Under the pieces are notes generated by a model that worked only from the letters and a program-made list of their open reading frames with translations, searched no databases and was not told the DNA's origin. A DNA stretch of 64,000 nucleotides, from contig JBBQBA010000001.1 in assembly GCA_038317055.1 (NCBI GenBank), positions 152,153 through 216,152 of the forward strand, written 5' to 3'. This document shows, one piece after another, positions 21,367-62,777 of the stretch (its first letter is position 1; every line of letters begins with the position of its first letter). The DNA comes from Candidatus Saccharimonadales bacterium. Its GTDB lineage: Bacteria; Patescibacteriota; Saccharimonadia; Saccharimonadales; DATKHC01. Made by a program: the position numbers and the translations under genes.

Positions 21367-21369
21367 GAT

Positions 21370-28823: not shown

Positions 28824-30095
28824 ATGGCTCGTCTACCAATACCTGGAAGTGATACGGGCAATTGGGGAAGTATCCTCAATGACTTCTTAAGTGTCTCTTT
28901 AAATACAGATGGTTCTCTAAAAGGTTCCGCTATAGGTTCCACTGGTCCTCAAGGACCACAAGGTACCCAAGGAGCAACTGGTCCTGGAGCTGGAGCAACT
29001 GGTGCTACCGGTCCTACTGGACTACAAGGTACAACTGGCCCCACCGGAGCGATAGGCTCATCCGGTGCTACTGGCTCAGGAACAACTGGAGCTACTGGTT
29101 CTACCGGACTTCAAGGAACAACTGGTTCTACCGGACCCTCAGGTAGCGTAGGAACTCAAGGAACAACTGGTGCTACAGGACCTTCAGGTAGCGTAGGTGG
29201 TCAAGGAACAACTGGACCAACCGGTCCAACAGGAAATCAAGGAGCGACTGGTCCCGCTACTGGAGTAGCTAGTGGAGATTTAACTGGAAATTATCCGAAT
29301 CCTACTTTAGTAGGTACAGCGAATGTAGAGAGTATTATTAGAGCTAATACCTTGGATCAGTTTGGTTCAGCTACGGGTCTCATTAGTCTAGGAAATGGTA
29401 CGTCTAATAATAGGATAGTAAACTTGGCGGCTGGAACTAATTCTACTGACGCACCTAATATGAGCCAACTCGGAGGTTGGGTACCGGATGCGAATGTATG
29501 GACACGAATATCGAATACTCAGTTCACAACTCCAACAAACCAGACCAACATATATGTCAATGGTACGCAATTAAAGTGGATCGATAGTGGCGGAACTAAG
29601 TACGGTACCGTTGCGTCATCATCGTTTGCAACTTCGACTACAACCGTAATCCTAGCTTCTACTGTAGACTATTTGCTTGCATCTTCTCCGGGAGCTGGAG
29701 CTAATTGGTATTCATATACGATCCCTCCAGACTTTCCGTCAACATTTACTTGGGCTCCGACATTCTCGGGTATTACAGGTGGTGATCCTGCTGGTAGTTA
29801 CTTTTTTGGTATGATTAGCTTAAAGTTTATGTTTGTGAGTGCTACAGGTATTTCAGGAACTGCAACGGGTACCACGCTAGGAGCAACACTGCCTATGGCA
29901 GCTGGTAGAACAGTATATCAACTTGCAGAAGGCGTTGATAATGGCGCAAATGCACTTGTGGCAACAAATACCTCTGCGTCTATCTTGACAGTAGCTAGCT
30001 CTACGGCTTTAACTTTCGCTAAGGAACCTGGTGGTGCCGCATGGACAAACTCTGGCTGGCGAAAAGTCTCATTTGAAATTGTGGTGCCATTATAA
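28824..30095 (+). CDS. collagen-like triple-helix repeat protein, phage-tail-fibre-like (paralog 3)
   Basis: 423 aa. [28 protein letters not shown]-terminus, ~108 aa of G-X-Y, then ..[29 protein letters not shown].. and a beta-rich C-terminus. Confidence 0.8.
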
Positions 30096-38842: not shown

Positions 38843-38872
38843 TTGATATAGTGAGTAAGCATTTGTTATAGT
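38843..38872 (+). promoter_or_regulatory. candidate promoter of tRNA-Lys
   Basis: TTGATA-18 nt-TATAGT, ending 17 nt before the tRNA 5' end. Confidence 0.35.
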
Positions 38873-38888
38873 AACGCATGCACTTATC

Positions 38889-38965
38889 GGGCCATTAGCT
38901 CAGCTGGTTAGAGCACCTGCCTCTTAAGCAGGGTGTCCTGGGTTCAAGTCCCAGATGGCCCTCCA
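38889..38965 (+). tRNA. tRNA-Lys (anticodon CUU)
   Basis: GGGCCATTAGCTCAGCTGGTTAGAGCACCTGCCTCTTAAGCAGGGTGTCCTGGGTTCAAGTCCCAGATGGCCCTCCA: clean cloverleaf, loop CTCTTAA, CCA encoded. Confidence 0.95.
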
Positions 38966-39011
38966 AAATGCTTATGCTTAATCTGTTACTAAGTGTTAAA
39001 CTAGAAATAGA

Positions 39012-39224
39012 ATGAAAATATCTATGAATTACGTACCATTAGTTCAAAGGCATAAACCCGAACAGCCAATAGATTTTTTTGATGATATAACAATTTCAGA
39101 ATTAGACTTGATGATAAGTGTAACGGCTAGGTTAAAAAGAATGTCACCTGAAGCTCAAGACATGATCTCAGAAATAGCTGGTGGATTAGTTGAAATAAAT
39201 GATCGTAAACAACTAACTACTTAG
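39012..39224 (+). CDS. cassette 1 ORF: hypothetical protein (70 aa)
   Basis: Only ORF between the tRNA and R1. No recognisable domain. Confidence 0.4.
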   Translation: MKISMNYVPLVQRHKPEQPIDFFDDITISELDLMISVTARLKRMSPEAQDMISEIAGGLVEINDRKQLTT

Positions 39225-39240
39225 ATAGACTTCCATAATA

Positions 39241-39284
39241 AGTAGATATAACCATCACTGTCGCCCTCCAAAATGGTTATGTTT
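39241..39284 (+). repeat. cassette-boundary repeat R1 (family A)
   Basis: AGTAGATATAACCATCACTGTCGCCCTCCAAAATGGTTATGTTT. Arms ATAACCAT/ATGGTTAT. Core has 1 mismatch to the tRNA end. Confidence 0.85.
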
Positions 39285-39327
39285 AAACAGAGATAACTTT
39301 ATCTATGTTTTTTGTTATTATTAGGCA

Positions 39328-39873
39328 ATGAACGTTTTAATATTGCATGGTATTCAAGGAAAAGCTGGAGAAAATTGGACTCATTGGCTAAGTGATTCTT
39401 TAACAGCCAAGTCCTATAACGTAATAATGCCCACTTTACCAAATGCTGATCACCCAGATCGTACTGAATGGCTGGAAGCGATTAAACAAATCACCCGAAA
39501 CATTTCTGATGATCTTATTATCGTTGCCCATTCATTAGGAGTAACAAGTGCTTTAGATTTCATAGAACAATCCCCTACTCCCATAAATGGTCTCGTTAGT
39601 GTCTCAGGCTTTGCCAATGATTATGGATTTAAGTTAAACAGCTACTTTTTGAAGGAGAGGAAGTTAGATTTTGATAAGATCAATAATAATTTAGGCAGTT
39701 CATTTGTATATTACGGAGACAACGACCCATATGTTACTCAAGAGGCTCTAGCTATATTAGCAAAGGACTTAAAAGTAAAACCAACCATTATTAAATACGG
39801 TGGGCATTTAAACAAAGCCACAGGGTTTACTGAATTCCCTCAACTCTTAGAGGCAATTGAGTCTATAAAATAA
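39328..39873 (+). CDS. cassette 2 ORF: serine hydrolase, YdeN/RBBP9-like alpha/beta fold
   Basis: 181 aa. VLILHGIQGKAGENWTHWL and nucleophile elbow VAHSLGV, the typical layout of the small Ser_hydrolase family. Confidence 0.7.
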   Translation: MNVLILHGIQGKAGENWTHWLSDSLTAKSYNVIMPTLPNADHPDRTEWLEAIKQITRNISDDLIIVAHSLGVTSALDFIEQSPTPINGLVSVSGFANDYGFKLNSYFLKERKLDFDKINNNLGSSFVYYGDNDPYVTQEALAILAKDLKVKPTIIKYGGHLNKATGFTEFPQLLEAIESIK

Positions 39874-39884
39874 TTCTGTGAAAT

Positions 39885-39928
39885 AGTAGATATAACCATC
39901 ACTGTGGCCCTCCAATACGGTTATGTTT
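39885..39928 (+). repeat. cassette-boundary repeat R2 (family A)
   Basis: AGTAGATATAACCATCACTGTGGCCCTCCAATACGGTTATGTTT. Perfect core. Confidence 0.9.
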
Positions 39929-39959
39929 AAAACTATGGTTGTTGTATATTTAATTCATA

Positions 39960-40220
39960 ATGAAAAAAGTTAAAACTCCAAAAAGGTTAAAAAATCTATT
40001 AATTTTGCTATATATATTTTTACCAATTTTCGGTTTCCTTTTGATATGGCTACCCGCACATAAAGTATCTACTCCAACTAGTTTCCAAGGATTGAGTACT
40101 ACATTCAAAACCCTATTAGTTTTATTTTGGATTTCTCTAATAGGTTTATTGACAACTGTAACCTTAATATTAGTAGATGTAATGAAAATATATATCATTC
40201 CTCAATTACGTAAAAAATAA
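39960..40220 (+). CDS. cassette 3 ORF: small two-TM membrane protein (86 aa)
   Basis: Preferred over the antisense 39950..40198 ORF because it has two clean hydrophobic helices and basic termini. Confidence 0.45.
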   Translation: MKKVKTPKRLKNLLILLYIFLPIFGFLLIWLPAHKVSTPTSFQGLSTTFKTLLVLFWISLIGLLTTVTLILVDVMKIYIIPQLRKK

Positions 40221-40241
40221 AAAGATACACTTATTTAAATT

Positions 40242-40288
40242 CAGTTGCGATAACAAGCTCGGTGGCCCTCCAAAGCATAAGTGTTATT
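40242..40288 (+). repeat. cassette-boundary repeat R3 (family B)
   Basis: CAGTTGCGATAACAAGCTCGGTGGCCCTCCAAAGCATAAGTGTTATT. Arms ATAACA..GCT/AGC..TGTTAT with bulges. Perfect core. Confidence 0.85.
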
Positions 40289-40292
40289 TATT

Positions 40293-40886
40293 TCAAATTT
40301 TAATCTTAGAAGCTTTCCGCGATTTACTACGATGAGAGATAATAATAGTTGCCCAAAGTAATCCATTAGAGAACATTAAATAGGCAGGATATATCCATGC
40401 TGATGGTGGGTATGCCTTGAGGGATAATAGAGTAAGCAACGTCGCTAATACTCCTAAAGCAAAAGTGATGTAAGTTTCCTCTTCGGGATTTTGCCATGAA
40501 TGTCTTACTGTAGGAATAGTACCTATAAAGTCAATCGATAAAGTAGCTACAATTGCAATCATCGGTGAATTAAACACTAGCCATAACACTAACCCAACTA
40601 CTGCCCCAATTAGACAGAACAAATCAAATGAATCAAATTTAGCTATTCCATATCTTAACCCTACGATTACCACAGCAAATGTGGCTACTGTATCTGCTGT
40701 AACGAGCATCGCTGCTCGATACTGATGAGAAGCAAATAATGCTGCCGCTCCAATACCTATTAATAATGTCCATGTAGACCAAGTAACTATATTAGGTTTA
40801 GTTTTTCCTTTAACTGTGTCAATGATGTAAGGAACAGTACAAAATAAAATAATCAGTGCACCAGTTATAGCAAGTAGTTCTTTCAT
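40293..40886 (-). CDS. cassette 4 ORF: multi-pass membrane protein (197 aa)
   Basis: About 6 hydrophobic helices. No confident family call. Confidence 0.5.
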   Translation of the reverse strand: MKELLAITGALIILFCTVPYIIDTVKGKTKPNIVTWSTWTLLIGIGAAALFASHQYRAAMLVTADTVATFAVVIVGLRYGIAKFDSFDLFCLIGAVVGLVLWLVFNSPMIAIVATLSIDFIGTIPTVRHSWQNPEEETYITFALGVLATLLTLLSLKAYPPSAWIYPAYLMFSNGLLWATIIISHRSKSRKASKIKI

Positions 40887-40928
40887 TTATTAAATAATAA
40901 CATTAGATATTCGCGGGTTAGTTATTCT

Positions 40929-40970
40929 GGTTGATATAGACAGTACGGTGGCCCTCCAATAATGTTTTAT
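40929..40970 (+). repeat. cassette-boundary repeat R4 (family C)
   Basis: GGTTGATATAGACAGTACGGTGGCCCTCCAATAATGTTTTAT. The left 30 nt are identical to R8. Confidence 0.85.
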
Positions 40971-41533
40971 TTAGGAAGTTTTTCACCTGCCGCATCGACG
41001 AGACCTGAATAAAAGAAGAATCTCTCTTTTTTATCTGGCTTTAATGGATTAATCTTAGCGTCAAGATCTACTATTTCTTGAAGTTTATTAATGTCGACCA
41101 TATCATTAGTATTTAAGTCATCGAGGCGCACTATCTTTAGTTCATTTGATGCAGGATAGTAATACTGAAGCTCAGTTGGTCGTACTTTTTGTCGGTGAAT
41201 ATTATGAGTTTGCGGTTGAATTAATATAAAACGAACTAGCAGGGGTGGAATGTTTGGCTCCAGGGTAGCATCACGATACTCACCAACCTGATAAGTAAGT
41301 CCACCGCGTCTATATATTTTTTCTCTAAAATTTACTACAGTAGCCATTGAGTCTACCCATCCAACTACTTGAACAGGGCTGGAATCTAAAGCCGCATCTG
41401 TGAGACGACAGATTTCATCTGTATAAAATTCTTCTCTTGGCATTTTACTAGTAATAAGTACTGGCTCTCCAGTCAAATCTGCCAACACACTTATTTCTTC
41501 AAATATATTACTAGGTAATTTCTCTGGACTCAT
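40967..41533 (-). CDS. cassette 5 ORF: hypothetical protein (188 aa)
   Basis: Its stop codon (TAA) is the complement of TTA inside the right arm of R4. No recognisable domain. Confidence 0.5.
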   Translation of the reverse strand: MSPEKLPSNIFEEISVLADLTGEPVLITSKMPREEFYTDEICRLTDAALDSSPVQVVGWVDSMATVVNFREKIYRRGGLTYQVGEYRDATLEPNIPPLLVRFILIQPQTHNIHRQKVRPTELQYYYPASNELKIVRLDDLNTNDMVDINKLQEIVDLDAKINPLKPDKKERFFFYSGLVDAAGEKLPK

Positions 41534-41590
41534 AGTAATCCTATTCTATTTGTATTAGTAATATAATCAAGCAGTAGCTTTTTGAATACT

Positions 41591-41634
41591 AATAGATATA
41601 ACCATCACTGTGTCCCTCCAATATGGTTATGGTT
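41591..41634 (+). repeat. cassette-boundary repeat R5 (family A)
   Basis: AATAGATATAACCATCACTGTGTCCCTCCAATATGGTTATGGTT. Core has 1 mismatch. Confidence 0.85.
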
Positions 41635-43834
41635 TTTTGTTTAAAATTCTGTTTAATCTATGTCTGATCCTAGGTGTTATTCCTCCTGTTATCATTGAAC
41701 CAAAACGATAGACAGGTAATTCTATACCTTCTTTATCTATAATCTTAGCTATATTCCCCTTATCTATACCTACGCTATTAGCAAAAGCTTTTATACTTAA
41801 CACGCCAGTAGGCGCTAAGGGGGTATCCAAAAGTAGCCTAACTTGTGGCAAATTTCTAACAGTATCCTGCATATCAGCATCTAGACCTCCAGAAATCTTC
41901 GGGCCAAACTTATAATCAGGTAACTCAATTTCGTTAGCTTCTAGAATAACCTTTAGGGTAGTGAATGCCATACCAATTTCTTTAGCGAAAGCATTAACAC
42001 TTTTTATCTCATCCTTAGGGGTTGGGCTCAATTCTACAAGTCCTTCTAGAAAGTCTTGCTGGCTTTTGGTTAGTCCTCTGGTTATAACTCCACCAAATTT
42101 ATATTTCAATGCATCTATGTTTTGTTCATCTACTAGTCTTTCCACTGTCGATCGAGCCGCATTATGGGTTTTAGCAAAAGATAATAGACTTACAACTCCT
42201 TCTTGCGCTACAGGGGTATAAGCTATTGCAAGTCCGATAATATGCGTTAACTGTTCTTGATTAATAGCATCGGATATATAGCCGTTATCAAACCTGTATC
42301 TTGGTAACTCCCATTCATTATCGGCAGCAATCTTTAAAATCGTTGGTTTTGATAGACCAGTAATCTTGGAAGCATCAGAAATACTAACATAATCATCAGG
42401 TGAGTATTCTATAGACAGCAATGACTCATATTTTTCTAGTAAGTTTACTACTAGCTTGTCGAATTCAAAATCACCATGATTTGTATGAATAATTAAATCA
42501 CCAATATCAATATCGCTATTACTTACATTTATTATCACATTATCTCCGTCTAGAATAGTTCCATCTTTCTCCCCTATTTCTGTTCTACGAGTTCTAATAG
42601 CTTCAGCCAAATCTCTAATCATCACGATCCTTTCAGCGTTTGCCATAAAATCCAGTACAGATACTCTGTCCTTACCAGCGTGTTTTCGTAAACCCCTTCC
42701 CAATTGCTGTTCAAAGATAGTTGGACTCTCAGTACTTCTAAGGAAAACTAACAGACGAGCATCTGGAATGTCTACTCCTTCATTAAACATATCTCTGGTC
42801 GTAATTATTTGAAGATCTCTATATCTAAAATCATTAAGTGTATCTTCTTTTTGTTTTTTATCCTTTATACCTGAATGATATGGTTTACCGCCTAGCAATT
42901 CTGCAATTTCTGCTGCATGCTCAATATTCTGACAAAAGACTATAGTTTTTACAGATCCAAATTCCAATCCAATTTTTTTCATTTCTTCTCTAATATTATT
43001 GGCAATGACCTCATTTCGTGGTTTAACCTTAAATAATTCCGTCAATGCACGAAGACTGCTCGCTTCAAAACCTGATTCCATTGCCTCTTTAACAGCATCA
43101 TCAAATACAATGTGATAATCTGGATCAGCCAATAGTCCCTCTGCAAGAGCTTCTGCAAGGCTTTTGCTATATAATTCTTGGCCAAATAGTTCTCTAATAT
43201 TTAACCTATCTAGTCGATTTGGAGTTGCTGTTAAAGCAAGCTGAAATTTCGGTTTAAAATGCTTAATCACAGCTTCAAATGTTTCAGCTTTTCCATGATG
43301 AGCTTCGTCATAAATAATATAATCAAAATATCCTTGTTTAAATGTATCTAATGAGCTATTTAATGATTGTAGAGTTGCAAAAGTTATATCTTGGTCAATA
43401 TCCTTCTCTTCACCATTGAAGAAACCTTGTGTGGCATCAGGGATAAAAGATGAAAATCGCTCCGCCGCCTGTTCGTTAATTTCGTTTTTGTGGCTTGCAA
43501 AGAGAATACGGGGACCATATTTACGTTTTCCTGAGTACTCTTGTCGATATTTTATTACGTCAAATACTGCTACAGATGTCTTACCAAGACCAGTTGCGAG
43601 ATGGATTAAGCCTGTATTTGCGCCACTGTTTCTGGCTTCCCACAGAGCACCCCAAGCATCTAATTGATATTCACGTACTTCAAAATCTTGGGCTTCAACA
43701 TATATCTCAGGGTCGAAATCTTCAGCAGATACTTCCTCTATGAAACCTTCTCTTAAATTAATACATGCTTGAATAAACGACGCAACATTTTTACGTCGCT
43801 CTTCTAAATCAGCGTTTTCTTTAGACTGCTCCAT
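41627..43834 (-). CDS. cassette 6 ORF: SF2 helicase (DEAH, type III restriction Res-subunit-like) with four C-terminal HTH-like repeats
   Basis: 735 aa. Walker A ATGLGKTSVA, DEAHH, TATPNR, QQLGRGLR. The C-terminal ~260 aa carry 4 repeats ending ..ELP.YRFG/YKFG... The stop lies in the right arm of R5. Confidence 0.8.
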   Translation of the reverse strand: MEQSKENADLEERRKNVASFIQACINLREGFIEEVSAEDFDPEIYVEAQDFEVREYQLDAWGALWEARNSGANTGLIHLATGLGKTSVAVFDVIKYRQEYSGKRKYGPRILFASHKNEINEQAAERFSSFIPDATQGFFNGEEKDIDQDITFATLQSLNSSLDTFKQGYFDYIIYDEAHHGKAETFEAVIKHFKPKFQLALTATPNRLDRLNIRELFGQELYSKSLAEALAEGLLADPDYHIVFDDAVKEAMESGFEASSLRALTELFKVKPRNEVIANNIREEMKKIGLEFGSVKTIVFCQNIEHAAEIAELLGGKPYHSGIKDKKQKEDTLNDFRYRDLQIITTRDMFNEGVDIPDARLLVFLRSTESPTIFEQQLGRGLRKHAGKDRVSVLDFMANAERIVMIRDLAEAIRTRRTEIGEKDGTILDGDNVIINVSNSDIDIGDLIIHTNHGDFEFDKLVVNLLEKYESLLSIEYSPDDYVSISDASKITGLSKPTILKIAADNEWELPRYRFDNGYISDAINQEQLTHIIGLAIAYTPVAQEGVVSLLSFAKTHNAARSTVERLVDEQNIDALKYKFGGVITRGLTKSQQDFLEGLVELSPTPKDEIKSVNAFAKEIGMAFTTLKVILEANEIELPDYKFGPKISGGLDADMQDTVRNLPQVRLLLDTPLAPTGVLSIKAFANSVGIDKGNIAKIIDKEGIELPVYRFGSMITGGITPRIRHRLNRILNKKP

Positions 43835-43917
43835 TTGAGATGATATTTTAACATTTTATTAGGTTTTTTTCAAGATTCCCTAGTTCTAGTAATTGTTTAT
43901 TATGCCTAGGGTTCTAA

Positions 43918-43963
43918 TAGTAGATATAACCATCACTGTGGCCCTCCAGAATGGTTATGCTTT
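43918..43963 (+). repeat. cassette-boundary repeat R6 (family A)
   Basis: TAGTAGATATAACCATCACTGTGGCCCTCCAGAATGGTTATGCTTT. Perfect core. Confidence 0.9.
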
Positions 43964-44018
43964 TATTTACTATCAGAAAAGAATATAATTCTAAAAATAA
44001 GTTATCGGAGAAATATGT

Positions 44019-44294
44019 ATGTTTGAAAGATTTTCTAGAACTCCAAAAATGCGTGGTCCAAGGTTTGATAAACACGGAAAAATGATAGGTTTAATTATTA
44101 GGTCTGCGGAACCAGTACGATTTGCTCATACCAATACTTACCTTCCTTTCTCCCCTCAACAACAAGATATTCCACCATCTACAGAATCAACTGAGACACC
44201 AGTTTCAATTTATGATCAATATCCAGAATTACTTGATTCAAGTAAGCTAAAAAATCCACCACCTAGCCTGCCAGAGGATCAAACGCAAGAGTAG
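44019..44294 (+). CDS. cassette 7 ORF: hypothetical protein (91 aa)
   Basis: Its TAG stop is the first TAG of R7. No recognisable domain. Confidence 0.4.
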   Translation: MFERFSRTPKMRGPRFDKHGKMIGLIIRSAEPVRFAHTNTYLPFSPQQQDIPPSTESTETPVSIYDQYPELLDSSKLKNPPPSLPEDQTQE

Positions 44295-44333
44295 AGATAA
44301 CCATCACGATGGCCCTCCAATATGGTTATGGTT
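44291..44333 (+). repeat. cassette-boundary repeat R7 (family A)
   Basis: GTAGAGATAACCATCACGATGGCCCTCCAATATGGTTATGGTT. Shares 12 nt (GATGGCCCTCCA) with the tRNA end. Confidence 0.9.
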
Positions 44334-44383
44334 AAAATTACTTTATTGTTAAATTTCCTTTGTTTGATTATGCTTAAATAAAC

Positions 44384-45085
44384 ATGGACGATCAAGACAC
44401 TCCTTCACAATCATCAATGCCCGATAATCAACCACCAGTAATTTCGGTACAGCAACCAGCACCAGAAACTAATCCAAATAACACAGTTCTGAATCCCCAT
44501 ACAACTCACTCGAAGAAAAAGTTATTACCTATATGTATCTCAGCGTTAGTTTTATTAATCACCTTAGGAATTGTCGGTACCATATATTATTTAAGTCATC
44601 ATAAAACAGTTAGTTCAAAGAATGCGACAATAATTTCTAAAACGCTAATCATTATTAACCCCGACGACACTAAAATAGAACAAGACTTAGCATCAATAGG
44701 AAATACGCTTGCCAATTATCCAAGTGAAGGAAATTCATTTTCAGCTCCGTTTATACCAGATAATATTAACCAATTACCGCAGACTAAACTTAACTATAAA
44801 GCCAGTTCATATAGTTATAAGGTTATTGCAAATGATGGTGGAGAAAAAAGTAATAAAATTATCTACCAAATATGTGCAAACTTTAATAAAAACACATTCA
44901 ACGTTTCGGCTTATAATAATATTTTTAGTACTTCTGGTGTTGATGGTACTTCAGCAGATTCATACGTCGTACATTCAAGCAGAATGCAATGTTTTACTAA
45001 CGATATAAGTTTTATGGGTCAGGGCCTTTCCTTAAACCTAAATAACAGCGAGATTAAATATAAAAGTCAACTTCAGACCAATTAA
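44384..45085 (+). CDS. cassette 8 ORF: membrane-anchored extracytoplasmic protein (233 aa, hypothetical)
   Basis: Pro/Gln-rich N-terminus, one TM (LLPICISALVLLITLGIVGTIYYL), then a globular part. Confidence 0.5.
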   Translation: MDDQDTPSQSSMPDNQPPVISVQQPAPETNPNNTVLNPHTTHSKKKLLPICISALVLLITLGIVGTIYYLSHHKTVSSKNATIISKTLIIINPDDTKIEQDLASIGNTLANYPSEGNSFSAPFIPDNINQLPQTKLNYKASSYSYKVIANDGGEKSNKIIYQICANFNKNTFNVSAYNNIFSTSGVDGTSADSYVVHSSRMQCFTNDISFMGQGLSLNLNNSEIKYKSQLQTN

Positions 45086-45095
45086 ATTAAATTTA

Positions 45096-45150
45096 TAGTA
45101 GTTGATATAGACAGTACGGTGGCCCTCCAAAGCATAAGCACTTTGTTATA
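45096..45150 (+). repeat. cassette-boundary repeat R8 (family C)
   Basis: TAGTAGTTGATATAGACAGTACGGTGGCCCTCCAAAGCATAAGCACTTTGTTATA. Perfect core. Confidence 0.85.
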
Positions 45151-45159
45151 CTGTGCGTA

Positions 45160-45516
45160 ATGGCTAAAACAGTTATTGTATTTCTGTCCCTGTTTTTAAT
45201 ATCTTTATTAATTACTTTTTCGTCGGTAAAAATTGCTACTACCACGCTTACCGATGGCAGCACACCATACACTTTTTTATCACACTTTGCATACACGTCT
45301 CCTGTCAAACAATCTGATGGATTATGCACAGGTTCGAATTTACACGACTACCATAAATCTGGATGGCCTCTACAATACGAATATCGTATTCCCGATGAAC
45401 CGGGGTGTGGTGATTTTAATTATCCATTAATTTTCGTAATCGACCTTTTGTTCTACTTGATTGTATTTTCAATTACGTGGGTCGGGTTGACGATTCTCAA
45501 GAAACACAAATCATAG
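45160..45516 (+). CDS. cassette 9 ORF: small membrane protein (118 aa, hypothetical)
   Basis: N- and C-terminal hydrophobic helices. Its TAG stop is the first 3 nt of R9. Confidence 0.45.
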   Translation: MAKTVIVFLSLFLISLLITFSSVKIATTTLTDGSTPYTFLSHFAYTSPVKQSDGLCTGSNLHDYHKSGWPLQYEYRIPDEPGCGDFNYPLIFVIDLLFYLIVFSITWVGLTILKKHKS

Positions 45517-45558
45517 TTGCGATAACGACTACTATGGCCCTCCAATATGCTTATGCTT
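45514..45558 (+). repeat. cassette-boundary repeat R9 (family B)
   Basis: TAGTTGCGATAACGACTACTATGGCCCTCCAATATGCTTATGCTT. The right arm is identical to the sequence 3' of the tRNA gene. Confidence 0.88.
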
Positions 45559-45592
45559 GCAATATATTAAAGATAGAAGATAATTTATATAA

Positions 45593-45919
45593 ATGTCACT
45601 ACATGAAATATATACCGACGAAGATACAAAAAATCTACGAGATGCTATAGGTAAATCAATAGTTAGGTCAACTGTTGTGACAGTTTTAAATGTAGAACCA
45701 GGACCATGGAATCTTAAAGACTTAGCTGAAGTTATTTCAACAGAGGCAGGACGATTACTCCCCAAATCTTCTCCCATTACTGGTTATCTAGGCACAGTCA
45801 TGATTAATATGCTTCATAGTGGTGAGCTTCAACAACATGACGGCTTTGGTGGTCTTGAACCTGGTATTAGCTTCCCTAGATCAGAATTCATACAAAGTCA
45901 TATGCAAACACCAAAGTAG
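45593..45919 (+). CDS. cassette 10 ORF: hypothetical protein (108 aa)
   Basis: Its TAG stop lies at the start of R10. No recognisable domain. Confidence 0.45.
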   Translation: MSLHEIYTDEDTKNLRDAIGKSIVRSTVVTVLNVEPGPWNLKDLAEVISTEAGRLLPKSSPITGYLGTVMINMLHSGELQQHDGFGGLEPGISFPRSEFIQSHMQTPK

Positions 45920-45958
45920 AAATAAGTTCCACGTTGGCCCTCCAATATGGTTGTGTTT
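45917..45958 (+). repeat. cassette-boundary repeat R10
   Basis: TAGAAATAAGTTCCACGTTGGCCCTCCAATATGGTTGTGTTT. Perfect core, divergent left arm. Confidence 0.8.
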
Positions 45959-45990
45959 ATTTTTGTTAGTAATACTGTTAAAGTACAGAA

Positions 45991-46215
45991 ATGATGAAGA
46001 AGATAGCTCTTGCAGTAATAATACTGTTAATTGTTGGCGTTGGTGTACTTGTTTGGAAGCACGAACAACAACCACGAATTAGTAAATCTCTCAAATATAA
46101 CAATAATTCTCAACAAGTCTGTCTTAACGAATACTATAATAAACACCCTGAAGTAAGAAATCTCAAACAAGAAGATGTAGTCTCTGCATCTCATTGCTAT
46201 GTTCTTACTCAATAA
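45991..46215 (+). CDS. cassette 11 ORF: small signal-anchored protein (74 aa)
   Basis: MMKKIALAVIILLIVGVGVLVW N-terminal helix. No recognisable domain. Confidence 0.4.
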   Translation: MMKKIALAVIILLIVGVGVLVWKHEQQPRISKSLKYNNNSQQVCLNEYYNKHPEVRNLKQEDVVSASHCYVLTQ

Positions 46216-46255
46216 TTTACAGAAGCAAAAGTTTTACTGCCACTATTTCTAATTT

Positions 46256-46299
46256 CAGTTGCTATATCTTCTACTGAGGTCCTCCAATACAGTTGTGCT
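46256..46299 (+). repeat. cassette-boundary repeat R11 (family B-like, degenerate)
   Basis: CAGTTGCTATATCTTCTACTGAGGTCCTCCAATACAGTTGTGCT. Core has 1 mismatch. Confidence 0.7.
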
Positions 46300-46311
46300 A
46301 AACTTATAGAA

Positions 46312-46557
46312 ATGAATAGGAAGAAGTACTGGTACTCTTCGCAAGGTAATGGTTTATTGCCAATACCTATTGCTCCTCAAGGCTGGTATAACATAATCAT
46401 TGCAGCGGTTGTAGCACTAGTTGCTGCAATTATCTTTTTGCCGCTTCATGATGATCCTACCCAAACGCAGATTAATAAGTTTTTGATTATTGCCATTCCT
46501 GATGCCGTAATTTTCACATTTCTTGTATTTAACAAAAAAGAGCCCCGACAGCATTAA
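46312..46557 (+). CDS. cassette 12 ORF: small two-TM membrane protein (81 aa)
   Basis: Two hydrophobic helices. No recognisable domain. Confidence 0.4.
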   Translation: MNRKKYWYSSQGNGLLPIPIAPQGWYNIIIAAVVALVAAIIFLPLHDDPTQTQINKFLIIAIPDAVIFTFLVFNKKEPRQH

Positions 46558-46567
46558 CGTTTGCTTG

Positions 46568-46617
46568 CAGTACGGTTGCCATAGCCACCACTATGGCCCT
46601 CCAATACGCTTATGCTT
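46568..46617 (+). repeat. cassette-boundary repeat R12
   Basis: CAGTACGGTTGCCATAGCCACCACTATGGCCCTCCAATACGCTTATGCTT. Perfect core. Confidence 0.8.
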
Positions 46618-46699
46618 CTTTGCACATTATCTACGATGTTAAGACCAAACCTATAGCAAATAGATTCATACATGTGAATAATTAGCTCCTCACTGCTCT

Positions 46700-46972
46700 T
46701 TAACGATATTTGTGCACAGCTGACGCCGTCATGAAGGCCACAAAAACTGTGATAACCAAACCGCCCATATCGATTACTTCTCCAGCAAATGGAATAAGGA
46801 TTGCCGCGACTGCTTCAGGTGTTGCTATGAGTAATAACAATGGCGCAATTTTCAAAAAAAGATTTTCATCTTTGCTTAACAAAAAATATTTGTAAGCATG
46901 AAGCCAACTTTGCTTTGGTTTAGTTCGATATGAAACTGTATATACGTCTTTCATTGCTAAAAGTATATGCAT
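46700..46972 (-). CDS. cassette 13 ORF: small membrane protein (90 aa, hypothetical)
   Basis: Only sizeable ORF between R12 and R13. Hydrophobic C-terminal half. Confidence 0.4.
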   Translation of the reverse strand: MHILLAMKDVYTVSYRTKPKQSWLHAYKYFLLSKDENLFLKIAPLLLLIATPEAVAAILIPFAGEVIDMGGLVITVFVAFMTASAVHKYR

Positions 46973-47056
46973 AAAAATGCAATTTGTATGTTAATAAAAT
47001 CACAATTCAATATTAATATAAATAGTACAGATTTTGTCACTTATATTTCGTTTACA

Positions 47057-47090
47057 ATAGCGAAAAGATGGAACTCCAATATGCTTATGC
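47057..47090 (+). repeat. cassette-boundary repeat R13 (degenerate)
   Basis: ATAGCGAAAAGATGGAACTCCAATATGCTTATGC. Core has 2 mismatches. Right arm intact. Confidence 0.6.
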
Positions 47091-47093
47091 ATC

Positions 47094-47525
47094 TTAATCT
47101 ATATTTTTCTGCATATCACCAAGTTGTAGTATTTCAGGAATAGGAATACCCGCTTCAGTTAAAGTATTTATAAGAAGACTTCTTTCAATTTGAATTGTAG
47201 GCCCTATTTCCTCCAAATCATTTATGTGTCTTCTATTAATTACTTCCGATCTTAAAACCATCACTCCATTTATTACTGCTGGAGCAGCATAATATGCAAA
47301 AGCATCTCTAGCAGAGGAGAAGCCGTCAATAGCTCCAAGAGTTGTACCAATAGCAATCACCGAAAGTGCATTTATCAATCTTTGTGTTTTCATTTCTGAT
47401 CTTGTTCGTTCTATAGAAGTTGCTACTAAAACACCATTAAGCTCAATGGATTCTTTATTAGGCACTTTAGAAAATAGTTTCTTCACTGTGTATACTTTTA
47501 TACACATTCGCCTGTAATACGGCAA
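47094..47525 (-). CDS. cassette 14 ORF: hypothetical protein (143 aa; true start may be the internal MKTQRL)
   Basis: Its stop lies 4 nt after R13. One hydrophobic segment. Confidence 0.4.
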   Translation of the reverse strand: MPYYRRMCIKVYTVKKLFSKVPNKESIELNGVLVATSIERTRSEMKTQRLINALSVIAIGTTLGAIDGFSSARDAFAYYAAPAVINGVMVLRSEVINRRHINDLEEIGPTIQIERSLLINTLTEAGIPIPEILQLGDMQKNID

Positions 47526-47544
47526 GCAGTAGCAATTTGAAGAT

Positions 47545-47590
47545 TAGTAGATATAACCATCACGGTGGCCCTCCAAAATGGTTATGCTTT
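47545..47590 (+). repeat. cassette-boundary repeat R14 (family A)
   Basis: TAGTAGATATAACCATCACGGTGGCCCTCCAAAATGGTTATGCTTT. Perfect core. Confidence 0.9.
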
Positions 47591-47624
47591 CAGAAGTAAG
47601 TATTCGAGGTTATCCTTTATACAT

Positions 47625-48227
47625 ATGCAGCTTCATCAAGAACATCATGTAGACCAATTAGAGATGGTAAAAGAGATTAGAGAAAAAGAGGTTAAAGGTC
47701 AATTAGGTTTTATAGCTATTTCGGGATTTGGTGGCTCAGGTAAATCTACATTTTCAGGAGAAATAAGAGAAAGATTGGATCAATGTGAAGTTGTACCTAT
47801 CGATGACTTCATTATTGGACGTAGGGATGAGCGGTCTAGTGATTGGAGTACATTTGATAGAAATAGATTGCATGAAGACATTCTAAAAGTAGCTCGTCCT
47901 AATGTACCTTTAAGTTATAAGATTTATAACAGTGGCGAATGGGTCGCTGGCAAAGGTGGAATATCGAGAACTATTACACCCCAAAAGTTTCTTATAGTTG
48001 AAGGTTGTGGCATATTACATCCCGACCTAATGCCATATTATGACTATTCAGTATGGATTGGTCAGTCCGGGGATACTGCTTGGGAAAAGGCTAAGACTAG
48101 AGATAGATCCGAAGGTAACAATAATGATCAACTATGGGATGAAATATGGGGACCTAATGACATTGATTATTTTAATAAGTATCGACCAGATCAATTAGCT
48201 ACAGCAATAATTGATCCATCAAAGTAA
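47625..48227 (+). CDS. cassette 15 ORF: P-loop kinase (uridine kinase/PRK-like)
   Basis: Start moved to the ATG at 47625, because the track start at 47565 lies inside R14. Walker A SGFGGSGKST. IVEGCGILH. Confidence 0.6.
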   Translation: MQLHQEHHVDQLEMVKEIREKEVKGQLGFIAISGFGGSGKSTFSGEIRERLDQCEVVPIDDFIIGRRDERSSDWSTFDRNRLHEDILKVARPNVPLSYKIYNSGEWVAGKGGISRTITPQKFLIVEGCGILHPDLMPYYDYSVWIGQSGDTAWEKAKTRDRSEGNNNDQLWDEIWGPNDIDYFNKYRPDQLATAIIDPSK

Positions 48228-48240
48228 AATTTTATGCCCT

Positions 48241-48283
48241 TAAATATAACACCCACTGTGGACATCCAATGTGGTTATGCTTT
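48241..48283 (+). repeat. cassette-boundary repeat R15 (family A, degenerate)
   Basis: TAAATATAACACCCACTGTGGACATCCAATGTGGTTATGCTTT. Core has 2 mismatches. Confidence 0.65.
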
Positions 48284-48346
48284 ATTAGCAATTTTTTGAT
48301 ACTATTCTTCATTTCTAAAATCCAATAAAGACTGCATAATAGAATT

Positions 48347-48637
48347 ATGAAGAAACTAAATATTAATGAATTAGATAAACAACTGAAACAGTTATCAAAT
48401 TGGTCCTTAGTTAACGGAAAACTATACAAGGAGTTTATTTTTACTGATTTTAAAAATGCTTTTAGTTTTATGACTGAAGTTGCTAAAAAGGCAGACACAA
48501 TGGATCACCATCCCGATTGGAGTAATTCATACAATAAGGTAGGCATTAATCTTTCAACACATTCAGCAGGTGGAATAACAGAAATCGATATTAAATTTGC
48601 AAAAGCAATCGAAAAATCTGCAAGTAAATATCATTAG
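48347..48637 (+). CDS. 4a-hydroxytetrahydrobiopterin (pterin-4a-carbinolamine) dehydratase
   Basis: 96 aa. ..FKNAFSFMTEVAKKADTMDHHPDWSNSYNKV..L.TH.. is the PCD/DCoH signature. Confidence 0.85.
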   Translation: MKKLNINELDKQLKQLSNWSLVNGKLYKEFIFTDFKNAFSFMTEVAKKADTMDHHPDWSNSYNKVGINLSTHSAGGITEIDIKFAKAIEKSASKYH

Positions 48638-48698
48638 AGTTATATTTTGTGAAGTTAGTATTTAGAAATGTTAAATACATTTTTGATATAATTAACTT

Positions 48699-49067
48699 AT
48701 GAGCGGTTCAAATATAAAAGTTGATGAATACCTAAAAACTTTGCCAAAATGGAAAAAAACTAATTTGGAAATATTTAGAAAACTAGTTCATGGTGCAGAC
48801 TTTTCAATTACTGAAGACTTAAAATGGAGTGTCCCGGTTTTCATAATTAACAATAAGATGGTTTTTGCCATGGCTGCTTTTAAGGCTCACACTAAATTTA
48901 ACTTTATAGCAAATGGAGCCTTAATTGATGATAAGGATCATCTATTTAATAATGGGTTTGATTCCAAAAAATCCCGAGGAATTGATCTTAAAGAGAACGA
49001 GGAAATTAATAATCCAAAGTTACTAGTCCTTATTAAAGCTGCTATAGAAAATATCAGTAGTAAATGA
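48699..49067 (+). CDS. DUF1801 (YdhG-like) domain protein
   Basis: 122 aa. VDEYLKTLP..W....L..IRKLV....P...E.LKW..PVF pattern. Confidence 0.65.
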   Translation: MSGSNIKVDEYLKTLPKWKKTNLEIFRKLVHGADFSITEDLKWSVPVFIINNKMVFAMAAFKAHTKFNFIANGALIDDKDHLFNNGFDSKKSRGIDLKENEEINNPKLLVLIKAAIENISSK

Positions 49068-49109
49068 ATAACTACTTACTATACGTTCACCTCAAAAATA
49101 GTTGGTTAT

Positions 49110-49517
49110 CTAAATTGCTTTCATACGATTATTACGAGGATTGTGCTCTAGTTCAGCAAGATCAAGTGCCTCAAGTAACGGTGGCATATATACTCCGAAC
49201 CGGCCCCTTAGTCCTTTCTTAATTCCATACCAACCACCAGCCGGATTGGATGAAGATCTTGCCCATGCTTCAACTGTTCCACCGGCTGCTGGTTTCTGTT
49301 CATCAGCACCACCAAGTAGCATCCAGTCACCATGTTTTTTAAGCATTTTATGAAGATCATCAATTGCACTTCGCTTGTAGCCAAGAGTAGTTTTGCCAAC
49401 TACACAGACAATTGTATCTGTAGATTCATCAATATACATTTGATAATCTGAAGAACCTGGGGGTGTTTTTAAATTCCAGGGATCTTTTTTAGTTCCTTTT
49501 CCCGAAGCTTTACTCAT
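49110..49517 (-). CDS. conserved hypothetical protein (135 aa)
   Basis: The strongly patterned sequence (DPWNLKTPPG..., GDWMLLGGADEQKP, GGWYGIKKGLRGRFG) looks like a conserved family, but I cannot name it with certainty. Confidence 0.5.
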   Translation of the reverse strand: MSKASGKGTKKDPWNLKTPPGSSDYQMYIDESTDTIVCVVGKTTLGYKRSAIDDLHKMLKKHGDWMLLGGADEQKPAAGGTVEAWARSSSNPAGGWYGIKKGLRGRFGVYMPPLLEALDLAELEHNPRNNRMKAI

Positions 49518-59375: not shown

Positions 59376-59452
59376 GCACCCTTAGCTCAGCTGGATAGAG
59401 CGTCTGTCTTCGGAACAGAAGGTCGTAGGTTCGAATCCTACAGGGTGCACCA
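59376..59452 (+). tRNA. tRNA-Arg (anticodon UCG)
   Basis: GCACCCTTAGCTCAGCTGGATAGAGCGTCTGTCTTCGGAACAGAAGGTCGTAGGTTCGAATCCTACAGGGTGCACCA: cloverleaf, loop CTTCGGA, CCA encoded. Confidence 0.95.
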
Positions 59453-59488
59453 TATTTGTTATGCTACAATTTAGTTAAATTTTATATT

Positions 59489-60892
59489 ATGAAAACGGAT
59501 CTACGGGAAAGCCCAAATATTGAGGATAATTTACCTGTTAATATAGTTCCACCTGATCAATCCCAAAAACCAATGCAAAATAGTTCCCACGAAGTAATAA
59601 TGGGGACTCAATCTGCTGACTCATCAGTTCAAAATTTAAGCGAAGGCAAGTCTGACTTCTCAAAGAGTATAAATACTAAGTTACATGTTCCTGAAAATTT
59701 AATTCAACAAACCACAAATAATTCTAAACTAAAACTATATTTAATAGTAGGTGGCTCTTCTATTGTTTTAATCATTCTTGTTCTTATATTTTTGTTAACC
59801 ATAAATAAATCGCATAAGTTGTTTTTCTATTCGCCCAATTCTTCAGGAAATACATATACTGATTCATTGAGTGGGTTTAAAATAAATCCACCAAAAGGAT
59901 GGAAAATAAATAGCAGTACTACTAATACTAGCTGGGACGCACCAAATAATGGTAAGGAAGGAACAGGTTATTTTGAAGCAGGCATTGATGTAACCGTAAC
60001 TTCTTCTTCCAGTAATAATATTGATGATGCCCTAACAACATATACAAAACAAGAGCATTCAAACAGTTATTACAATAGTTATGAAGTAATATCAAAGACT
60101 AAAACAAAAGTAAACGGTGTGGAAGCATATATATTAAAGTCTACTAACCTTGAATCTACTGGTAGTGATGTTTCCTATACAATTACTTCAACAGAAATAT
60201 TCGAACTTAAGAATGGCGTTATATATGATGCTAGCAGTAATATAGCAGATGGATTTAAAAAAAATTACACTGCAACAATTAATAAATCATTACTCACCTT
60301 TAAACCAGGATCTATTTCTAACGACAGCTTGTCAGCACATTTAACTAATCAGGCTAACGCTGATAATGTTGCTAGCGCTGAGCAGTTACCGGTTGATAAT
60401 TCTACAGATTTTTCTAATCTGATATCCACAGCTAAATCTATTTATTTTTCGCAAGGACCTGTGATTGGAATTACCCCCAGTCTAAATGATGAAAACAACG
60501 CTTGCGAAAACTTTAGTGCAGCAACTAGTGCAAATAGGTACAACTGTAGTGTTGAGTTTTATAAAACTATATATGTTAGTAATAATTTTAGTTCCGAGTT
60601 GCAAGCTATGACGAAAATAGAAAACCAGGCGAAAAATAGTGGCTTTTCAAACCCAAAGATAGACGTTTCTTCTAACGGAACGCCAGCATCAAACTACTCC
60701 CAGTATTATTCTGCTAGTAGTTTGTCATCCAATACCTATTGTTACCTTAAGATTGATTATAACCCTGATTATTCTCCTCCTCAGATTAGTTATGATTTAT
60801 CATGTCAGCAACAAAAATCAGACGGAACAAAAATCTACACTTCAATTATTCCAAATGGGTTTCACGAAGTTAAAACACAGTCTGGGCAATGA
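59489..60892 (+). CDS. membrane-anchored extracytoplasmic protein (hypothetical), directly downstream of tRNA-Arg
   Basis: Start moved to the ATG at 59489, since the track start abuts the tRNA. One TM (LKLYLIVGGSSIVLIILVLIFLL). No recognisable domain. Confidence 0.55.
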   Translation: MKTDLRESPNIEDNLPVNIVPPDQSQKPMQNSSHEVIMGTQSADSSVQNLSEGKSDFSKSINTKLHVPENLIQQTTNNSKLKLYLIVGGSSIVLIILVLIFLLTINKSHKLFFYSPNSSGNTYTDSLSGFKINPPKGWKINSSTTNTSWDAPNNGKEGTGYFEAGIDVTVTSSSSNNIDDALTTYTKQEHSNSYYNSYEVISKTKTKVNGVEAYILKSTNLESTGSDVSYTITSTEIFELKNGVIYDASSNIADGFKKNYTATINKSLLTFKPGSISNDSLSAHLTNQANADNVASAEQLPVDNSTDFSNLISTAKSIYFSQGPVIGITPSLNDENNACENFSAATSANRYNCSVEFYKTIYVSNNFSSELQAMTKIENQAKNSGFSNPKIDVSSNGTPASNYSQYYSASSLSSNTYCYLKIDYNPDYSPPQISYDLSCQQQKSDGTKIYTSIIPNGFHEVKTQSGQ

Positions 60893-61000
60893 TGATAATA
60901 AATTATTACTTCCAGATTAAGGTAGTTGTTATATGGGCAGTTTTTTGTGTCATTGGCGATATTCTTAATCCTCTCTTTTATAGAAAAAAATTAACAATTC

Positions 61001-61046
61001 TGGTTCGAACCTCAGCCAGTGTGATGCACCAAATAGGAGGTTCATT
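61001..61046 (+). repeat. candidate tRNA-Arg-type boundary element / displaced tRNA 3' fragment
   Basis: TGGTTCGAACCTCAGCCAGTGTGATGCACCAAATAGGAGGTTCATT has a T-loop-like GGTTCGAA, then TGCACCA, the last 7 nt of tRNA-Arg. Arms GAACCTC/GAGGTTC (7 bp). CAGTGTG..CCAA parallels CACTGTG..CCAA of the Lys repeats. The right arm also contains the AGGAGG RBS of the next ORF. Confidence 0.4.
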
Positions 61047-62140: not shown

Positions 62141-62709
62141 TTATTATCCTTTTGTTTTTTATTTTTGTCATCAGTTTTACGATTAGTTTTTCGCTTGGGT
62201 ATATTCTTTTCTGATAAGATTTTCTGGAGTATAGAAATTACATTTTCTGCATGTTCTCGGCTCATACCAACTCTTGCAACAGTTAATGGTTGTGTGTTTG
62301 GTTGAGGACTATTTTGTTGGAAATTAACTACAATTCCAAAATCATTGACTGTTGCTTGCACCATGTCCGTATAAACTATTCTGGAATCAATAGGCAAAAT
62401 AAACATTGCGGATTGATTGTTTAGGGGTTCACTAGCGGGTGCAGGTGTTTCATTAGTTAGATTGTCATAACCCGACATACGCCAAAGCTTCATAGCTTCC
62501 TCGTTTTGGAGAGCAAAGTGACTAATCAAAAGCAGAAGTATGTCCTCGCTCGGAAGTTTAAGACCAGATTCAATGTCAACGAGTAATTCAGGTTCAATTT
62601 CTACGGCACCAGACACATCAGGTATACTTTCGTGTTCCTTCTCGCGTAGAGATCTTAACTGAAAGCCTAATGTTCTAAATGGAAATTGTTTGGATTTACC
62701 TTCGGCCAT
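62116..62709 (-). CDS. XRE-type helix-turn-helix domain protein
   Basis: 197 aa. GFQLRSLREK...SIPDVSGAVEIEPELLVDIESGLKLPSEDIL resembles the Cro/C1 HTH layout. Basic C-terminal tail. Confidence 0.55.
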   Translation of the reverse strand: MAEGKSKQFPFRTLGFQLRSLREKEHESIPDVSGAVEIEPELLVDIESGLKLPSEDILLLLISHFALQNEEAMKLWRMSGYDNLTNETPAPASEPLNNQSAMFILPIDSRIVYTDMVQATVNDFGIVVNFQQNSPQPNTQPLTVARVGMSREHAENVISILQKILSEKNIPKRKTNRKTDDKNKKQKDNKWSGSQDL

Positions 62710-62777
62710 TACTGGTTAATGTTACGCTGCTTCTCTTATACGCGCAAGTAATTTCGATAGTGTATATAATACTGATT

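Follow-up and report, generated by a model that had tools for sequence, protein, structure and literature searches.

The tRNA-Lys locus and its array of repeats

We analysed a stretch of 64,000 nucleotides (hereafter the window) from a Candidatus Saccharimonadales bacterium (assembly GCA_038317055.1, contig JBBQBA010000001.1, positions 152,153 to 216,152 of the forward strand), in which a tRNA-Lys(CTT) gene is followed by an array of short gene cassettes. The tRNA gene, recognised by both ARAGORN and Rfam, lies on the plus strand with FolD and other housekeeping genes farther upstream, and its last 11 nucleotides read TGGCCCTCCA(A). Fifteen further copies of its last nine bases, GGCCCTCCA, with 0 to 2 mismatches, are present 3' of the gene and are called here R1 to R15 (Table 1). 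Each copy carries a left arm of about 21 nucleotides, which is not derived from the tRNA, and a right arm of about 15 nucleotides. All of them are on the plus strand and at this single locus of the window; the left-arm skeleton AGTNGNNATAN6ACNNT is matched 9 times in the window compared to 0.29 expected, and 8 of these 9 matches fall within the array. The spacers range from 305 to 2328 bp and contain essentially one open reading frame (ORF) apiece, 10 on the plus strand and 5 on the minus strand. Pfam scans identified a serine hydrolase, a ResIII helicase with NUMOD1 and a P-loop protein among the cassette products and gave no match for the remaining cassette ORFs.

The original prediction had tentatively placed a very degenerate 16th copy at 49069-49110. 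A profile built from 171 copies of the repeat gave no match there even at E<=100, so the recognisable array ends at about 48285 and not at 49110. The DUF1801 gene found just past this end may be an old cassette with a decayed repeat, because its homologs are cassettes elsewhere. The strain-level relatives found for the window array were all fragments from the same run, SRR19962015.

Table 1. Junctions, cassettes and associated features of the window, with the first position of each core copy
Feature	Position	Strand	Core start	Remarks
Promoter-like site, TTGATA-18-TATAGT with TG extension	38843..38872	+		5' of tRNA-Lys; consensus match only
tRNA-Lys(CTT)	38889..38965	+		
R0, tRNA 3' end and right arm AAATGCTTATGCTTAA of cassette 1	38946..38983	+		array-free tRNA-Lys genes lack the arm
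Cassette 1 ORF, 70 aa	39012..39224	+		no family
R1, class A junction	39240..39288	+	39262	left arm AGTAGATATAACCATCACTGT, core CGCCCTCCA, right arm AAATGGTTATG; 30 bits
Cassette 2 ORF, 181 aa, Ser_hydrolase	39328..39873	+		homologous cassettes in L016 (first there) and L008
R2, class A junction	39883..39932	+	39906	40 bits
Cassette 3 ORF, 86 aa, predicted membrane protein	39960..40220	+		overlapped by an 82-aa ORF on the opposite strand
R3, class 1-like left arm	40237..40284	+	40264	inverted right arm AAGCATAAG
Cassette 4 ORF, 197 aa, membrane protein	40293..40886	-		homologous cassettes in L005, L014, L023, L048 (two copies) and L049
R4, class 3 left arm GTTGATATAGACAGTACGG	40924..40972	+	40950	arm also in L005 and L035
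Cassette 5 ORF, 188 aa	40967..41533	-		no family
R5, class A junction	41585..41635	+	41612	core GTCCCTCCA
Cassette 6 ORF, 735 aa, ResIII/Helicase_C helicase with NUMOD1	41627..43834	-		
R6, class A junction	43917..43965	+	43940	
Cassette 7 ORF, 91 aa	44019..44294	+		
R7, class A junction	44289..44337	+	44311	
Cassette 8 ORF, 233 aa	44384..45085	+		
R8, class 3 left arm	45095..45134	+	45121	same as R4 over 30 nt; inverted right arm
Cassette 9 ORF, 118 aa	45160..45516	+		
R9, class 1 junction	45510..45561	+	45536	43 bits
Cassette 10 ORF, 108 aa	45593..45919	+		
R10	45913..45960	+	45936	
Cassette 11 ORF, 74 aa	45991..46215	+		
R11	46251..46302	+	46278	core GGTCCTCCA
Cassette 12 ORF, 81 aa	46312..46557	+		
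R12, class 1 junction	46569..46617	+	46595	
Cassette 13 ORF, 90 aa	46700..46972	-		
R13, weakest copy	47065..47092	+	47070	core GGAACTCCA, left arm lost; 10 bits
Cassette 14 ORF, 143 aa	47094..47525	-		
R14, class A junction	47540..47591	+	47567	40 bits
Cassette 15 ORF, 220 aa, P-loop protein	47565..48227	+		homologous cassettes in L011, L024, L033 and L041
R15, last recognisable copy	48244..48285	+	48260	core GGACATCCA; 18 bits
DUF1801 gene just past the array	48699..49067	+		homologs are cassettes in L035, L047 and others
Second, separate tRNA-linked insertion, at tRNA-Arg(TCG) (59376-59452)	59376..61031	+		

Related arrays and the position of the cassette boundary

One genome per species was scanned with TGGCCCTCCAAWAYGSTTATG, and the related genomes were read as pieces of 8-20 kb. 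The scan yielded 50 loci, almost all from metagenome-assembled genomes (MAGs) of Candidatus Saccharibacteria. At least three co-oriented copies were present in 38 loci (about 45 contigs), and the non-tRNA copies amounted to 171 in total. Where the start of an array lay within the fetched piece, it followed a tRNA-Lys gene with CTT or TTT anticodon; two arrays start instead at a truncated 3' fragment of tRNA-Lys, about 30 nt after an intact tRNA-Trp(CCA) (L014 1902-2030 and L048 1983-2100). Since L048 shares its MAG with the tRNA-Lys array L016/L027/L031, one genome can hold two arrays. Many Saccharibacteria carry the identical tRNA end and no array.

The consensus of the repeat is tAGTTGCgATAGCgTCtACgr followed by TGGCCCTCCA and ATAcGcTTATGCTTAAA, often with a terminator hairpin after it, and written as one string the consensus reads tAGTTGCgATAGCgTCtACgrTGGCCCTCCAAta.g.ttatg. 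The 152 spacers have a median length of 676 bp (interquartile range 489-872). One ORF dominates in 122 of them, and it is co-oriented with the tRNA in 96 cases and opposite in 26 (p=1e-10). Accessory functions make up the cargo, namely HAD and NUDIX hydrolases, GNAT acetyltransferases, Zeta and HEPN toxins, kinases (P-loop) and membrane proteins. Large cassettes of the other genomes encode GNAT, cytochrome b-like, MOSC, HEPN and other proteins as well as a TrwB-like ATPase, and no integrase was found in any of the approximately 150 cassettes examined. A search of the full-text literature returned no description of these tRNA-Lys cassette arrays. We conclude that a real, widespread and integrase-less cassette array is anchored on tRNA-Lys in Saccharibacteria.

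An insertion event was captured in two metagenome contigs, L071 and L072, which represent strains that are 97.7% identical and differ by a 1,485-bp cassette located exactly at the end of the tRNA-Lys gene. The site is empty in L071, where tRNA-Lys is directly followed by its terminator and then by MurB. In L072 the insert is flanked by the duplicated 11-bp core TGGCCCTCCAA; its products are a HEPN protein and a functionally uncharacterised protein of 264 aa, with no recombinase among them. Two further comparisons locate the ends of cassettes: the cassette common to L024 and L037 is 90% identical and its homology stops right after ...TGGCCCTCCAAT, and in the cassette family of L002, L035 and L014 the upstream left arms differ while homology starts at the core. 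These three independent comparisons put the cassette boundary inside the core and point to site-specific capture of cassettes, so that the linear cassette consists of core, right arm, ORF, left arm and core. The 11 nucleotides TGGCCCTCCA(A) are the integration core, with a role like that of attI or attB. Integration at the tRNA 3' end, with the gene regenerated and a core copy displaced, is what we observe in the L071/L072 pair and in the 15 copies of the window, and at the level of DNA there is support for the capture mechanism. The right arm is absent both from array-free tRNA-Lys genes and from other tRNAs; it is therefore part of the cassette, not of the host. A role of this arm as a general tRNA trailer or processing signal is ruled out by the same absence.

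The repeats of the window fall into families, which had been attributed to import from a shared pool, or to gene conversion, rather than to a single local tandem duplication. The families were confirmed: R2 and R6 are the same over 32 nt, with R14, noted as identical to both over about 35 nt, differing at 2 positions there. R4 and R8 are identical over 30 nt, and R3 and R9 have AGTTGCGATAAC in common. The like copies are not adjacent, as mean identity is 0.62 between adjacent and 0.61 between non-adjacent copies (permutation p=0.47-0.75). The cassette ORFs, checked as possible paralogs, are unrelated, and DNA self-similarity within the array is confined to the repeats and spans at most 68 nt, which excludes local duplication. 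About 9 of the 15 window repeats have their closest left arm in the array of another species. Moreover, homologous cassettes occupy different arrays with different neighbours, and the homologs of window cassettes 2, 4 and 15 and of the DUF1801 gene are cassettes located at other positions in the arrays of other species. These comparisons of sequences support the view that the repeat families reflect a pool common to several species and not local duplication, in agreement with the original prediction.

The regions of R5 and R14 (41568-41635 and 47523-47590) are alike over 68 nt at 87% identity. This match extends 25 nt past the left arm (CAAGCAGTAGC..TTTGAA) into the region upstream of two minus-strand cassette ORFs that are unrelated to each other, and may correspond to a common promoter or leader.

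Other kinds of inserts were encountered in the related loci. Mini-cassettes of 110-205 nt devoid of an ORF lie directly 3' of the core in L033 (4581-4786 on the minus strand, with further copies there) and also in L036, L043, L044, L025 and L022. They are composed of a terminator hairpin and then a strongly structured segment (RNA minimum free energy of -94 kcal/mol, z=-5.6), in which the last 20 nt copy the tRNA 3' end and the 5' GGAG pairs with the terminal CUCC. Near-identical mini-cassettes occur at several junctions of one array and have no Rfam match; they may represent either a gene for a small RNA or a non-autonomous element aimed at the same core. Extra tRNA-Lys-like genes or long tRNA fragments are found inside the arrays of L009 (1044-1116) and L020 (two tRNA-type ends about 1.8 kb apart), which suggests a second class of inserts with longer tRNA identity. 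Finally, L071 and L072 differ by a second indel of 731 bp (L072 6797-7528, corresponding to L071 7528/7529), which is GC-richer than its surroundings, contains a 217-aa ORF with no Pfam match and has no link with a tRNA.

The proposed recombination site, its putative enzyme and the possible polarity of the array

The right arm repeats the half-site of the left arm in inverted orientation, about a centre between the TGG and the CCC of the core, and the two arms together form a dyad of about 34-36 bp. In most genomes the site reads ATAGCGTCTACGA-TGGCCC-TCCAATACGCTTAT, and in the main class of the window (class A) it reads ATAACCATCACTG-TGGCCC-TCCAATATGGTTAT. The inverted elements are 17-18 bp apart, with a conserved ATA outermost in the half-site. 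The two arms do not vary independently: class A left arms pair with GGTTATG right arms, both when the two arms of one junction are considered (odds ratio 33, p=1e-5) and when those of one cassette are considered (odds ratio 16, p=9e-5), and this co-variation persists when the window is left out. Because the association also holds within cassettes, despite the boundaries in the core, it represents a co-variation of half-sites at the level of lineages. The predicted folds of single-stranded DNA are weak and inconsistent (-2.2 to -6.4 kcal/mol, z from +0.7 to -2.2), which speaks against a single-strand hairpin of the attC type. Since the hairpins are weak, the dyad is best read not as such a fold but as a duplex site of about 34-36 bp for a dimeric recombinase, comparable in size to loxP or dif.

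A variant right arm, AAGCATAAGCG, is located directly 3' of the core and is the reverse complement of the usual CGCTTATGCTT. It occurs in the window at R3 (40273-40284) and R8 (45130-45141), and in L003, L012, L015, L029, L030, L031, L044 and L057; in L012 and L057 it immediately follows the tRNA.

No ORF of the window had been seen to resemble a tyrosine or serine recombinase, a transposase or a relaxase, and an enzyme acting in trans had been deduced. Pfam scans of the window ORFs were negative, as were phmmer, hmmsearch and tblastn searches in all frames seeded with XerC, XerD, lambda Int, IntE, FimB, FimE and PinE, with positive controls that scored well. The same seeded searches found no tyrosine or serine recombinase in 130 related loci (2,356 ORFs, and tblastn in all frames over 1.3 Mb). 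No recombinase was present among the recurrent neighbours of the arrays (FolD, Mur ligase, ComEC, RimK and histidine kinases) or among 30 of the largest cassette ORFs, and a Pfam pass over 140 further ORFs revealed no recombinase family with two or more members. Viral contigs searched with four att patterns gave nothing relevant, the lone match, L053, being a high-GC and unrelated contig, and phage and plasmid collections searched with the att sequences gave no match. As no recombinase is linked to the array either in the window or in about 50 arrays of other genomes, the deduction that any enzyme must act in trans is supported.

Insertion at the tRNA-proximal end, with older units decaying distally, had also been proposed, in part because R13 and R15 are the only copies whose cores have 2 mismatches. 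This is indeed the case, but in the window alone the decay is no more than expected by chance (core mismatches versus rank, Spearman 0.27, p=0.34; profile score versus rank, rho -0.21, p=0.46), and R1, the most proximal copy, also has a core mismatch. When 18 tRNA-anchored arrays were considered, the repeat score fell with rank (mean Spearman -0.32, 14 negative and 4 positive, Wilcoxon p=0.008). The TTATG motif of the right arm was present in 71% of the tRNA-adjacent sites, 59% at rank 1 and 25-38% at ranks 2-5 (Spearman p=0.002), and the left-arm skeleton showed no trend with rank. The incoming right arm and terminator would become the new 3' flank of the tRNA and would decay freely once pushed outward. 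The sole strain-level polymorphism of a cassette, that between L071 and L072, sits at the tRNA itself, in an array that comprises one site. Furthermore, the cassette common to L024 and L037 sits between unshared neighbours, so arrays are not simple nested stacks, and the presence of near-identical mini-cassettes at several junctions of one array also counts against such stacks. Polar capture thus shows no significant trend in the window and has modest support from the 18 arrays and from the loss of the right-arm motif with rank; that cassettes enter mostly at the tRNA is plausible but only weakly supported.

Elsewhere in the window, the cassette-like insertion at tRNA-Arg(TCG) has a TTATGCT that resembles the right arm at tRNA-Lys and is placed equally far after CCA, and it closes with a degenerate tRNA 3' fragment, GGTTCGAACCTCAGCCAGTGTGATGCACCA, at about 61003-61031. 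It encodes a membrane-anchored, Ser/Thr/Asn-rich protein of 478 aa (59456-60892). This ORF was considered as a hidden recombinase, but its single transmembrane helix, its Ser/Thr/Asn-rich region and the lack of any match in Pfam or NCBIfam led us to reject the idea. MurB (62679-63806) lies 23.7 kb from tRNA-Lys in the window, which was compared here with L071, L072, L080 and L050; in several relatives MurB is directly 3' of tRNA-Lys or of its short array. The genes at 48.3-59.3 kb include PCD, DUF1801, DUF6855, Tag, HxlR, FMN reductase, MMPL, ferric reductases, FUR and VKOR. Some of them recur 3' of the arrays in L015, L018 and L022, and these window genes may be old cassettes or rearranged backbone. 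Rfam recovered tRNAs and tmRNA alone, and a tmRNA lies at 437-842 of the window. Three large proteins with collagen triple-helix repeats (18795-23841 and 28824-30095), two of which add YadA-stalk motifs, are probably surface fibres of the episymbiont.

Candidate mechanisms and known systems

With a probability of about 60%, we regard the locus as a chromosomal gene-capture array that resembles an integron, uses the 3' end of tRNA-Lys as its acceptor and has no recombinase of its own. The mobile unit would be a short cassette, usually with one ORF co-oriented with the tRNA. In its circular form, the arms would flank the 11-bp core and build a simple, dyad-symmetric site. A recombinase whose gene lies at another place in the genome, or is carried by a rare helper element, would join this site to the identical 11 bases of the tRNA end, in a reaction that would regenerate the tRNA and duplicate the core. 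From the lox/dif-like geometry of the site, we infer that this enzyme would most likely be a simple tyrosine recombinase. Repeated insertions, mostly at the intact tRNA, would push the older cassettes outward, and the cassettes would circulate among Saccharibacteria species as a common pool.

Several points weigh against this proposal. No enzyme was found within the 8-20-kb pieces of the related genomes, and action in trans is deduced from this absence nearby and not from a located gene. No circular cassette or excision product was seen. Polarity shows as a weak signal, to which the right arm alone contributes, and the cassette of L024 and L037, which has no shared neighbour on either side, calls for internal insertion, for deletion or for capture on independent occasions. 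The proposal gives no account of the recurrent inverted right arm AAGCATAAGCG, and the dyad could in principle act as a hairpin and not through a protein dimer, though the predicted hairpins are weak.

In a variant of this explanation that names the enzyme, and which we consider rather unlikely, the host housekeeping Xer-type recombinase would move the cassettes, which would then be comparable to dif modules or to integrative mobile elements exploiting Xer (IMEX). The lack of a dedicated recombinase near about 50 arrays is what such an enzyme would leave, and the site is short, dyad-symmetric and without arm-type sites; its right arm TTATGCTTAAA presumably resembles the XerD arm TTATGTTAAAT of E. 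coli dif. The geometry fits less well, since the spacing between the inverted elements is to be compared with a central region of 6-8 bp in dif, and since the conserved ATA is at the outer and not the inner end of the half-site. The tRNA-Lys site is probably not the chromosomal dif, because the GC skew keeps its sign around it, being negative from 34 to 50 kb. That many Saccharibacteria with the same tRNA end are free of arrays also counts against dif, and would be odd for a universal enzyme.

Less likely still is that no dedicated recombinase is involved and that the repeats of about 50-80 bp (arm, core, arm and terminator) serve as portable homology for RecA-dependent exchange after natural transformation. 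Saccharibacteria are naturally transformable, and the ComEC competence gene is near some arrays. Together with the failure to find a recombinase, the recurrence of near-identical whole junction units at non-adjacent places would be expected from such exchange. The L072 insertion into a virgin site, on the other hand, has only 11 bp in common with its target, which is too short for RecA. The left-arm positions AGT.G..ATA......AC are conserved across species and arm classes, and the co-variation of the arms keeps the dyad symmetry, which homology alone would not select.

It is improbable that the array is the decayed wreck of successive integrase-carrying islands, prophages or tycheposon-like elements that integrated at tRNA-Lys and left cargo and att scars. 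Tandem accretion at tRNA genes leaving partial tRNA copies is well known (10.1101/2020.12.28.424599), and some arrays do hold longer tRNA fragments. The spacers, short and with a single ORF each, speak against a wreck, no integrase fragment was detected by tblastn over 1.3 Mb, and almost all junctions have kept the left arm, which does not derive from the tRNA. In addition, the recent gain observed between strains is a 1.5-kb unit without integrase. Local tandem or segmental duplication, or a dispersed terminator or REP/MITE-like (repetitive extragenic palindromic, miniature inverted-repeat transposable) element with no role in gene capture, can practically be set aside: the arms are inverted and terminator-like hairpins follow many repeats in other genomes, but this explanation is already refuted by the unrelated spacer ORFs and by adjacent repeats being no more alike than distant ones, all copies are on one strand at one locus of the window instead of being dispersed in both orientations, and cassette homology and strain polymorphism both end at the core.

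The arrays share several properties with sedentary chromosomal integrons and with clusters of attC sites lacking integron-integrases (CALINs). In both cases long one-directional arrays are made of short, mostly single-ORF and co-oriented cassettes, each ending in a recombination site, with accessory, toxin and unknown cargo and with cassettes common to several species. They differ from integrons in that no intI adjoins the array (window and 130 loci searched) and that the tRNA 3' end takes the place of attI as acceptor. A dyad conserved in sequence, with 11 bp of identity to the target, forms the repeat, in contrast to the structure-defined attC hairpin with its GTTRRRY and RYYYAAC boxes. Moreover, the crossover here splits the site mid-way, which leaves one arm at each end of the cassette.

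The tycheposon islands of Prochlorococcus also integrate at tRNA 3' ends, regenerate the tRNA, leave partial copies and let newcomers push older elements inward, but each of those elements spans several kb and brings along a tyrosine recombinase and replication genes (10.1101/2020.12.28.424599). The units described here are of about 0.3-2.3 kb, have no integrase, copy 10-11 nt of the tRNA and possess a conserved non-tRNA arm; Pfam scans and seeded searches found no tyrosine recombinase and replication module of the tycheposon type. Cis-mobilizable elements (CIMEs) at the streptococcal tRNA-Lys(CTT) are decayed integrative and conjugative elements (ICEs) with long att sites, present in one or two copies, whose cognate ICE is known. 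Like the present cassettes, the elements that accrete in this way are devoid of integrase and have att sites as their borders at a tRNA-Lys 3' end; they are served by the integrase of another element, as the present cassettes may be. Arrays of up to 15 single-gene cassettes set our case apart. IMEX use an Xer-dif site of 28-31 bp, with two arms of about 11 bp, a centre of 6-8 bp and ATAA/TTAT facing the centre. With IMEX and the pdif modules of Acinetobacter, the cassettes have in common that they are small recombinase-free modules with short dyad sites, pile up in tandem and would depend on an enzyme encoded elsewhere. They differ in that the 11-6-11 layout of dif is not matched, all sites are in direct orientation, and a tRNA gene is used with no switch in GC skew.

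It is possible, though we hold this more tentatively than the capture array itself, that Saccharibacteria, episymbionts with tiny genomes, independently evolved an integron-like platform with a tRNA acceptor, a lox-like split dyad and an unlinked recombinase, either a repurposed housekeeping enzyme or a member of an unrecognised family, and that the specificity of the half-sites diversified by lineage to give the class 1, A and 3 arms.

Genomes of the Candidate Phyla Radiation are smaller than 1 Mb, and the acquisition of accessory genes in these organisms is poorly understood. With 15 single-gene cassettes open to exchange, an array of about 10 kb, that is about 1% of such a genome, would offer a major route of adaptation, and related arrays carry HEPN and Zeta toxins, acetyltransferases, NUDIX and HAD hydrolases, helicases and surface proteins. 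If the proposal is true, it would represent a second and independent answer to the integron problem, in which a sequence-defined dyad and a tRNA acceptor take the places of a structure-defined attC and of attI. The trans-acting enzyme, if found, could be a compact recombinase with a defined site of about 35 bp, and the arrays constitute a ready marker for strain-level gene flow in uncultured Saccharibacteria.

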